From Escherichia coli (GTDB taxonomy: Bacteria > Pseudomonadota > Gammaproteobacteria > Enterobacterales > Enterobacteriaceae): a stretch of DNA of 64,000 bases. The stretch lies in the NCBI RefSeq assembly GCF_003019035.1, contig NZ_CP027447.1; one strand, given 5' to 3'. Shown in pieces: positions 34,801-37,800 of the stretch. Numbering within the stretch: the stretch's first letter is position 1; each line of letters opens with the position of its first letter. Position numbers: made by a program.

Positions 34801-37800
34801 GACAACACTTCACTCTTCATCTGCTTTTCCTTGATGCTATAGGGGTGCTGAGACCGATAACGCATTTTGTAAACCATCCCTGCGAGAGCGAATATTCCGA
34901 TATCTGGTTATTAATTTATGATTCTTGTTTTATGTGATCGTGGTAGCGTAAATTACGCTCATATATCATTGTAAAATATGGGTTTTATATGAATTATAAT
35001 GCTTTCGTGATAATACGCTGCGTGTATTAGGCGGAAAAAACTGATCTGGGGGATGTAGAAACTCAAGGAAGTAGCTATAATGCGCCCCGCCTCCATGTAG
35101 CAATCGAGGCGCGGAAGATCGTCGTCTCCGGTGAGGCGGCTGGACTTCAAATCCAGTTGGGGCCGCCAGCGGTCCCGGGCAGGTTCGACTCCTGTGATCT
35201 TCCGCCAAAATTCCTCTTCATACGTTCTCCAACCCCTCGTAATACTGTCAATCCAGATATTTTCTACTGCTCAATATTAAATCGGCTTCAGGAATACCTG
35301 ATCAAAGGTTTTATGATGGACGATGAGCGGCTGAAGAATCCGCCAGTCGGTTCTTCTGTCCTCGAACGCATCCGCGATATTCGCGCCAGCATGCGCCGTG
35401 TTTATTTGCAGGTGATTTGCCCCCTGCTGACTCTCAGCCAACTGTATCGCCATTAAGGTGAAGATGTTGTTTTACACGCTTCTGCACACCCTTTTGATAC
35501 GACTATTCTATTCCTTTAACAGCTGGCGAAAAAAACTGACCTGTAAACTTCACCAATAATCAGACTGCCATCAAGATTAATTTATTCATGTAATATATCA
35601 AATCAACTTGTTTTATTTTTACTATCAAAAATAGCTCATTGCCTTACTATAATTAATATATAAATTCGGTGATTAACTCTTAACATGCTTTTGCTAATAA
35701 TCTCAATTGCTGGCCCTATAATATTGCGCTAGCATTGCTTTCTGGTTGTATCAGCGATACTCAAAAATTCTTAATACAATACTCATTCGACTGGTACTTA
35801 TTTGTAACTCAGTTATATTTTGTCGCCCGGTGATTCAGAAGAATGCAAAAAACGGCTACTACTCCATCAAAAATACTTGATCTCACTGCCGCGGCATTTT
35901 TACTTGTCGCCTTTCTGACGGGTATTGCGGGCGCTCTCCAGACTCCCACCCTAAGTATATTCCTCGCAGATGAACTGAAAGCCCGTCCTATAATGGTAGG
36001 TTTTTTCTTCACCGGTAGCGCTATTATGGGGATTCTGGTCAGTCAATTTCTGGCAAGGCACTCCGATAAACAAGGCGACCGTAAATTACTGATCCTGCTA
36101 TGTTGCTTATTTGGAGTGTTGGCCTGCACGCTTTTTGCGTGGAATCGCAACTACTTCATTCTCCTCTCTACGGGCGTACTTCTGAGTAGTTTTGCTTCCA
36201 CTGCAAACCCGCAAATGTTCGCCCTCGCCCGTGAACACGCCGACAGAACAGGCCGTGAGACGGTCATGTTCAGTACATTTTTACGTGCTCAGATCTCGCT
36301 TGCCTGGGTTATCGGGCCACCGCTCGCTTATGAGCTGGCAATGGGATTTAGTTTTAAAGTGATGTATCTCACCGCAGCCATCGCATTTGTTGTTTGCGGG
36401 CTGATAGTCTGGTTGTTTTTGCCATCAATACAAAGAAATATTCCTGTCGTTACCCAACCCGTAGAAATTTTACCCTCCATCCATAGAAAGCGGGATACAC
36501 GGCTACTTTTTGTGGTCTGTTCAATGATGTGGGCGGCGAATAATCTCTACATGATAAATATGCCGCTATTTATTATTGATGAACTGCATCTAACCGATAA
36601 ACTGGCTGGAGAAATGATTGGTATTGCTGCCGGTCTGGAAATTCCGATGATGTTAATCGCAGGCTATTACATGAAACGTATTGGCAAGCGACTATTAATG
36701 CTCATTGCTATCGTGAGTGGTATGTGTTTTTACGCCAGCGTACTCATGGCGACGACTCCGGCAATTGAGCTGGAATTGCAAATTCTAAATGCCATTTTCC
36801 TTGGTATTCTCTGTGGTATCGGCATGCTTTATTTTCAGGATCTGATGCCTGAAAAAATAGGCTCTGCGACAACGTTATATGCAAATACCTCACGCGTCGG
36901 CTGGATTATCGCCGGCTCTGTTGACGGAATTATGGTTGAAATCTGGAGCTACCACGCGTTGTTCTGGCTGGCGATAGGGATGTTGGGTATTGCGATGATT
37001 TGCCTGCTGTTTATTAAAGATATTTAGCTCACCAGTCTGGGCTAAGAAAAATCGGCGTGGCGCAAACAGAGCCATCCTCGCCATTTTTGCTATCATGCCT
37101 GCATACATAAACGACAAAACAGTATGCAGAGGGAAAAATGGGTTCCACCAGAAAGGGGATGCTGAACGTTCTGATTGCCGCCGTGTTGTGGGGAAGTTCA
37201 GGGGTCTGCGCGCAATACATCATGGAGCAAAGCCAGATGTCGTCGCAGTTTTTGACTATGACGCGTTTGATATTCGCCGGTTTGATTCTGCTGACGCTGT
37301 CATTTGTTCATGGCGATAAAATCTTTTCTATTATTAACAATCACAAAGATGCCATTAGTCTGCTGATTTTTTCCGTGGTTGGCGCGCTAACCGTACAGCT
37401 CACTTTTTTGCTAACCATCGAAAAATCGAACGCAGCCACGGCAACGGTGCTGCAATTCCTCTCACCGACGATTATCGTCGCCTGGTTCTCACTGGTACGT
37501 AAATCGCGCCCGGGCATTCTGGTTTTTTGCGCTATTTTGACATCGCTGGTCGGGACTTTTTTACTGGTGACACACGGTAATCCGACGTCATTATCGATCT
37601 CTCCTGCCGCGTTATTCTGGGGCATTGCCTCGGCATTTGCTGCGGCATTCTATACCACCTATCCCTCAACGCTAATTGCCCGCTATGGCACGTTGCCTGT
37701 CGTCGGCTGGAGTATGCTGATCGGCGGTCTGATTCTGTTGCCTTTTTATGCCAGACAAGGGACAAACTTTGTCGTTAACGGCAGTTTGATTCTGGCGTTT

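Follow-up and report, generated by a model that had tools for sequence, protein, structure and literature searches.

Among the closest described relatives of the selC region analysed here are those of Escherichia coli EAEC 042 and of ST69 isolates. In EAEC 042, an island termed selC-A lies between selC and a 21-bp repeat, followed by setC, yicL and nlpA and then by a second island, selC-B; this layout goes back to Sheikh 2006 as cited in Fox 2020 (PMC7058095). ST69 isolates mostly lack selC-A while keeping selC-B (PMC7058095; PMC2808357), and one ST69 isolate retains part of selC-A (PMC7058095). Both islands are referred to under the label "selC locus". Other occupied selC sites, with islands of the LEE, PAI-I, SHI-2, P4-like and CP4-like types, share the same attachment site (attB), the 3'-terminal 21-24 nt of selC. 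In Salmonella, the interval between selC and yicL is filled by SPI-3, and yicL has been placed 278 nt from the mgtC transcription start (PMC3641672). A frz operon of 7227 bp located between yicH and yicI has already been published under the name GR27 (PMC12928451).

The stretch of DNA analysed here, from now on referred to as the window, comprises 64,000 nucleotides (64 kb) of the E. coli contig NZ_CP027447.1. Its layout is ordinary and already described: an empty selC, a selC-setC spacer of the K-12 type, an annotated rhuM relic within this spacer and an arrangement of islands resembling that of ST69. With a probability of roughly 0.9, we consider selC to be an intact and unoccupied attB site, the spacer to be of the standard non-B2/K-12 type without any strain-specific scar, and the two neighbouring frz and eip/air islands to be independent insertions. 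Like EAEC 042 and the ST69 isolates, the window carries selC-B (eip/eilA/eaeX(air)) beyond setC-yicL-nlpA-yicS, and it shares the absence of selC-A with most ST69 isolates. EAEC 042, in contrast, possesses selC-A together with its 21-bp direct repeat (PMC7058095).

The selC gene (35113..35207, + strand) encodes tRNA-Sec with the anticodon UCA and is the lone tRNA gene identified by ARAGORN in the 64-kb window (anticodon tca). It scores 83.8 bits against Rfam family RF01852, compared with a gathering score of 47, and alignment shows it to be intact and 100% identical to K-12 selC. Searching the whole window against Rfam at the gathering score returned nothing besides selC, and at E <= 1 the segment 34800..36000 likewise returned selC alone. 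The attB core corresponds to the 3'-terminal 21-24 nt of the gene (35184..35207, + strand; TTCGACTCCTGTGATCTTCCGCCA), the segment of which island-bearing strains carry a second copy, attR. In such strains, the match on the spacer side begins at selC query positions 66-75, and attR can be seen directly in the alignments of O17_K12a and KS-NP019. Since the islands of occupied strains end at a selC 3' repeat, attB can be assigned to the final 21-24 nt of selC; in the window these are intact.

A first-pass annotation of this DNA had proposed that selC is unoccupied in spite of accessory islands on both sides and that neither an integrase nor a direct repeat of the selC 3' end follows it, and it had suggested searching the window for further copies of that end. 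Repeat searches and annotation agree with this proposal: the window holds a single selC 3' end, and the stretch from selC to setC is colinear with K-12. No second copy of the selC 3' 26-mer was found in the 64-kb window with up to 3 mismatches, and the terminal 21-mer has its best other match in the window, on either strand, at 6 or more mismatches. The 3' 16-mer, searched across the window with at most 3 mismatches, gave one extra match only, which has 3 mismatches and is at chance level. The annotation of the window lists neither an integrase nor a transposase or IS. It was read from the near-identical record of E. coli SCU-301 (NZ_CP051751.1), a commensal isolated from humans, which is identical to the window over the first 17 kb and differs from it by 7 mismatches and 17 gap positions over 15113..55915, where the first difference, at 50380, falls within the tandem repeats of air. 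Unlike occupied selC islands, the site thus lacks an adjacent integrase, an attR direct repeat that would form an attL/attR pair, and any inserted DNA relative to K-12 (635 vs 636 bp, colinear). Two 19-nt direct repeat copies, at 35030 and 35525, bracket selC and the rhuM relic, but were rejected as a chance match; 16 of 300 shuffled sequences reach its score, the repeat does not extend, and the copy in the K-12 spacer carries a 1-nt deletion and a further substitution.

Across 5426 complete E. coli genomes, the uninterrupted junction consisting of selC and the first 93 nt of this spacer is found in 2491 (46%), while the complete spacer-to-setC cassette is found in 3652 (67%). In roughly 1100 of the 5426, attR and the spacer lie apart from selC. 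Several strains carry an island at selC, and three of them were compared. O17_K12a carries a CP4-like element at selC with a YeeU/CbtA toxin-antitoxin pair, KS-NP019 a P4-like element with a primase-helicase and CFSAN004176 a defence island with MADS, Abi and SNF2 genes. In O17_K12a and KS-NP019, the island ends in a 21-24-nt selC 3' repeat, after which the same spacer, relic and setC follow. In CFSAN004176, the match begins at query position 245; the relic is gone and setC is kept. The recurrence of the same spacer and relic after unrelated islands identifies the relic as part of the setC-side flank and as no part of the current islands.

Precise integrase-mediated excision restores attB without leaving a scar, and the sequence is therefore unable to show that selC was never occupied. 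An island of the selC-A type could recently have been present and been lost in this manner, making the empty state secondary. Related eip-positive strains do carry such an island, namely EAEC 042 with its selC-A and 21-bp repeat (PMC7058095) and O17_K12a, in which an island is followed by the same spacer and by selC-B; the ST69 isolate that keeps part of selC-A (PMC7058095) and the roughly 1100 genomes in which attR and spacer are separated from selC point in the same direction. Yet the process is not expected to leave a scar and hence finds no direct support in the window, and the empty K-12-type junction is, at 46%, the commonest single state among the genomes. We regard a recent excision as unlikely; it would be compatible with an unoccupied attB beside two independent insertions and would not replace this explanation.

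The selC-setC spacer extends from 35208 to 35842 and is exactly 635 bp long, given that selC ends at 35207 and the setC ATG lies at 35843. Its G+C content is 38.4%, falling to 32.9% over 35457..35842, compared with 50.2% for the whole window. The approximate length, the AT-richness and the position of setC as the next gene after selC had all been read correctly in the first pass. The impression of a spacer longer than that of K-12 was mistaken. The K-12 spacer measures 636 bp, between the selC end at locus position 12095 and the setC start at 12732, and the two spacers are colinear at 95.3% identity with 30 point differences (27 substitutions and 3 indel columns), no indel being longer than 1 bp. 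This comes close to the result that the first pass had named as speaking against its own suspicion, a spacer equal to that of K-12 in length and sequence. The K-12 region also has the same order of selC, rhuM fragment and setC, and its relic carries the same 24-nt and 9-nt deletions. Near-equality in length and order, at 95.3% sequence identity, leaves virtually no chance that a strain-specific insertion remnant has lengthened the spacer here, and nothing in favour of such a remnant emerged from the comparison.

Divergence from K-12 is unevenly distributed along the spacer. The 77-bp post-tRNA flank (35208..35284, + strand) differs by 7.8%, the relic (35285..35440) by 4.5%, the following segment (35441..35600) by 8.1% and the setC-proximal segment (35601..35842) by 1.65%, whereas yicJ, setC and yicL differ by about 2%. 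Only the first 10 nt of the post-tRNA flank are common to B2 E. coli and Salmonella, the rest being specific to the K-12-type cassette. Judged by their raised divergence, the 390 bp nearest to selC evolve like DNA free of constraint. Conversely, the setC-proximal 240 bp or so are conserved to the degree of coding sequence, as would fit a promoter and leader of setC. We therefore picture the spacer as built from a 77-bp flank, an internally deleted rhuM fragment of about 155 bp that may represent the leftover of an old selC-associated insertion drifting roughly neutrally, and about 400 bp of AT-rich DNA.

The rhuM relic (35285..35440, + strand; about 155 bp) was delimited by Pfam PF13310, alignment with MP1 rhuM, tblastn and the RefSeq pseudogene. 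It corresponds to about codons 121-187 of the 345-codon RhuM gene and has neither a start nor a native stop. Its + frame translation reads ...LQEYLIKGFMMDDERLKNPPVGSSVLERIRDIRASMRRVYLQV... and matches PF13310 (Virulence_RhuM) with E = 9.3e-13 and 48.5 bits (cutoff 33.7), covering only profile positions 50-99 of 252; the spacer contains a significant match to the family and no full-length RhuM ORF. Compared with the intact B2 (MP1) rhuM, the relic is 86% identical over 157 aligned nt and has lost 24 and 9 nt through two in-frame deletions; its first 69-75 nt reach 94.7-98.6% identity. With both termini missing and two internal deletions, the relic is a pseudogene and no functional RhuM member. 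Its loss of function is also suggested by an in-frame TAA stop that is present in the K-12 relic only, the frame of the window allele being open, and by the raised divergence described above. An upstream extension of the relic to about 35223, as proposed by tblastn, was rejected; identity to intact rhuM collapses at 35284/35285, and the extended alignment runs into selC itself. RefSeq already annotates the spacers of SCU-301, K-12 and other K-12-type genomes among the matches listed with a pseudogene of a "RhuM family protein" ("incomplete; missing N-terminus and C-terminus"). The earlier suggestion that the spacer could hold a remnant of a former insertion is thus borne out in substance by the rhuM fragment (PF13310); the argument from length was wrong, and the relic is not strain-specific. 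Being common to K-12 and most non-B2 E. coli, it tells nothing particular about this strain. RhuM-family proteins also match the PADLOC candidate phage-defence family PDC-S05.

The AT-rich region upstream of setC (35441..35842, + strand; about 400 bp) was delimited by composition and divergence. Its conserved proximal 242 bp (35601..35842) probably hold the setC promoter and leader, and the motif CTATAAT at 35716..35722 may serve as the -10 element, a candidate put forward from its sequence. A generic scan of the spacer for sigma-70 promoter and terminator consensus sequences gave no more sites than were found in shuffled sequences. Genomic SELEX has located RpoS and RpoH holoenzyme peaks within the K-12 selC-setC spacer (PMC5493296). 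These RNA polymerase holoenzyme peaks, along with the open frame through the relic in the window allele, might be taken to indicate that the rhuM segment or the AT-rich DNA has been co-opted for a purpose beyond the setC promoter, as a small protein, an sRNA or a regulatory site. Against such a role, Rfam yields no match besides selC, the K-12 relic allele contains an in-frame stop, the relic region has diverged 2-4 times as fast as the sequences beside it, and some island-bearing strains (CFSAN004176) have lost the relic and kept setC. Co-option is therefore considered highly improbable, and a neutrally drifting fragment next to a conserved setC promoter and leader would account for the spacer.

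The accessory DNA on either side of selC, noted in the first pass, represents two separate insertions at yicH/yicI and yicS/nepI, neither of them integrated at selC. On the upstream side, comparison with K-12 by blastn and annotation delimit a frz operon island of 7257 bp (23830..31086, - strand). It lies between yicH and yicI in place of 27 bp of the intergenic DNA of K-12, and 4.0 kb separate its end from selC downstream. Its gene set, a PTS-fructose-like, aldolase, ROK and isomerase operon, identifies it as the published GR27. The frz operon genes are also present in the B2 loci of MP1 and JJ2434.

On the downstream side, the selC-B (eip) island of 20,124 bp (39384..59507), delimited by blastn against K-12, annotation, ORF and repeat searches, begins 4.2 kb downstream of selC and stands where K-12 has 48 bp of yicS-nepI spacer. 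It encodes eicA, eipB, eipC, eipD, eilA and a 4194-aa air/eaeX gene; annotation between yicS and nepI lists a SycD/LcrH chaperone, a YopB/SseC translocon subunit, an IpaD/SipD tip protein, EilA and an Ig-repeat inverse autotransporter. Assignment to selC-B is based on this gene set and on the position beyond setC-yicL-nlpA, matched to the published description of EAEC 042. The literature name "selC locus" island (PMC7058095; PMC2808357) and the distance of only 4.2 kb from selC could suggest that eip/air is the distal part of one large selC island, in which case setC-yicL-nlpA-yicS would be island DNA and selC would be occupied. We consider this extremely improbable. K-12 and B2 strains without selC-B possess yicL, nlpA and yicS in colinear arrangement, yicL also borders SPI-3 of Salmonella, and the insert substitutes for 48 bp of the yicS-nepI spacer of K-12. 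In addition, no selC repeat was found at 39384, at 59507 or elsewhere in the window, and no integrase is annotated; a selC 3' repeat flanking the eip/air island, which had been raised as something that would overturn the picture of an empty site, is thus absent from the window searched. The selC gene of this strain is an empty integration site, and frz and eip/air are mechanistically not selC islands, despite the literature label. The frz island would have entered at yicH-yicI and eip/air at yicS-nepI, neither of them via selC.

The gene following the spacer, setC (35843..37027, + strand), encodes a 394-aa MFS sugar efflux transporter, as supported by its ORF, annotation and Pfam MFS_1. The first pass had called it conserved, which holds within part of E. 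coli; setC is missing from B2 strains and from the representative genomes of every other species searched. The window and the B2 strain MP1 are homologous up to 35217 (selC + 10 nt) and again from 37109, which lies 29 bp ahead of the yicL ATG. The K-12-type cassette between these breakpoints (35218..37108; 1.9 kb), consisting of relic, AT-rich DNA and setC, represents one filling of a variable selC-to-yicL interval, and setC is part of this interval rather than of the deep backbone.

In the B2 strains MP1 and JJ2434, 2.3 kb of different DNA without setC lie between selC and yicL, and this B2 cassette is found in 844 genomes. It is ordered as selC, an intact 345-aa rhuM, a degenerate selC repeat, a second rhuM relic, a gene for a 165-aa hypothetical protein and yicL. 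The degenerate selC 3' repeat reads CGACTCCTGTGAT----CGCCA followed by AAATGCCTCTTC (L003 10297..10327), with 4 nt missing, and the second relic (L003 10399..10602) spans codons 166-245 and is more decayed. The B2 cassette thus resembles the window in its breakpoints (10 nt past selC and about 30 bp ahead of yicL) and in having rhuM-derived DNA after selC. It differs from the window by its intact rhuM, the degenerate selC repeat, the second relic, the hypothetical gene and the lack of setC. The second B2 relic is not the missing half of the gene from which the K-12-type relic derives; this possibility was examined and dismissed, because the two overlap at codons 166-187 with different sequences.

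Homology to Salmonella Infantis SARB27 breaks at 35217 and 37088, and according to the SPI-3 annotation of L090, the corresponding interval is the 16.7-kb SPI-3, which lacks setC. Similar to the K-12-type cassette, SPI-3 fills the interval that opens 10 nt past selC and closes about 50 bp ahead of yicL, and it includes rhuM. Unlike the window, it extends over 16.7 kb, carries misL, marT and mgtCB among others, and has an intact rhuM about 3 kb from selC. RhuM proteins of Salmonella SPI-3 and B2 E. coli share 85% identity.

All alternative fillings of the interval thus contain rhuM or its remains, which supports, without proving, the notion that the K-12-type spacer and setC are the fossil of an old insertion. 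We hypothesize that the selC-to-yicL interval constitutes a single replacement hot-spot shared by Escherichia and Salmonella, that the K-12-type filling is an eroded ancient rhuM-bearing selC island, and that setC is domesticated cargo rather than ancestral backbone; we see the chances of this proposal as evenly balanced. The relic would then mark an ancient selC island, and rhuM-bearing elements would have entered at selC repeatedly, as the B2 cassette would show by its intact copy, its degenerate attR and its second, older relic. For the window itself this matters little, and its interest is mildly evolutionary, in that the "backbone" spacer together with setC looks like the fossil of an older selC insertion.

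If the hot-spot proposal is correct, setC would be an E. coli-only paralogue of setB. Among one representative genome per species, no SetC orthologue above 73% amino acid identity was found, and the top hits, including all those from Escherichia, reached 72%. Ten of these 72% SetC-like loci were checked and have no tRNA-Sec nearby. One of them, considered as a setC orthologue and rejected after the locus was inspected in detail, is a 393-aa gene located next to fruBKA-sized ORFs, that is, setB.

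In B2 strains, in which an intact rhuM gene follows the tRNA-Sec gene selC, the 3' end of selC is repeated in degenerate form downstream of rhuM (positions 10297..10327 of the E. coli MP1 locus L003), and the same repeat is present in a second B2 locus, L004. This repeat carries a 4-nt deletion and extends to some 14 nt from the flank that follows the tRNA gene, which are duplicated as well. It is followed in both loci by a second, frameshifted rhuM relic corresponding to codons 166-245 (L003 10399..10602). The combination of degenerate selC repeat and second relic suggests that B2 strains received at least two rhuM-bearing insertions at selC, one after another. 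In the window, a 19-nt direct repeat (35030..35048 and 35525..35543, 17/19 matching) flanks selC and the rhuM relic located there; shuffling placed it at chance level and it does not extend beyond 19 nt.

Along its entire length, the intact RhuM of B2 strains (L003 9148..10182) matches PDC-S05, a candidate phage-defence family in PADLOC (E = 3e-173), and the phages with RhuM homologues include Wolbachia phage WO and phages of Gordonia and Streptococcus. For RhuM biology, these relationships may be more telling than the label "virulence protein".

A retron-type reverse transcriptase of 323 aa is encoded on the minus strand at 5664..6635, between slmA (4980..5618) and pyrE (6921..7577). Its top PADLOC match is RT_Ec107-like (E = 3e-132), and the pyrE-ttk/slmA site is where retron Ec107 has been described. 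An Rfam search of the adjoining non-coding DNA returned no family match, and no obvious effector gene was found for this reverse transcriptase.

Within the eip island, the air/eaeX inverse-autotransporter gene (46722..59306, minus strand) forms a single intact ORF, whose 4194-aa product contains long tandem Ig-like repeats, whereas the RefSeq record of the near-identical E. coli genome SCU-301 splits the region into three annotated pieces, described as frameshifted. Aligned with each other, the window and SCU-301 show 7 mismatches and 17 gap positions, of which the first is at 50380; the discrepancy probably stems from misassembled repeats in one of the two sequences.

Relative to K-12, an 839-bp insert (60787..61625) lies between nepI and yicN and encodes a RelE/ParE-family toxin and an HTH antitoxin. 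According to the SCU-301 annotation the toxin is frameshifted; B2 strain JJ2434 carries an intact copy of the same pair. The recG-gltS intergenic region is about 130 bp longer in K-12 (3093..3223 of the K-12 locus L002, compared with 19106..19111 in the window), and the additional sequence may be a REP-type element.
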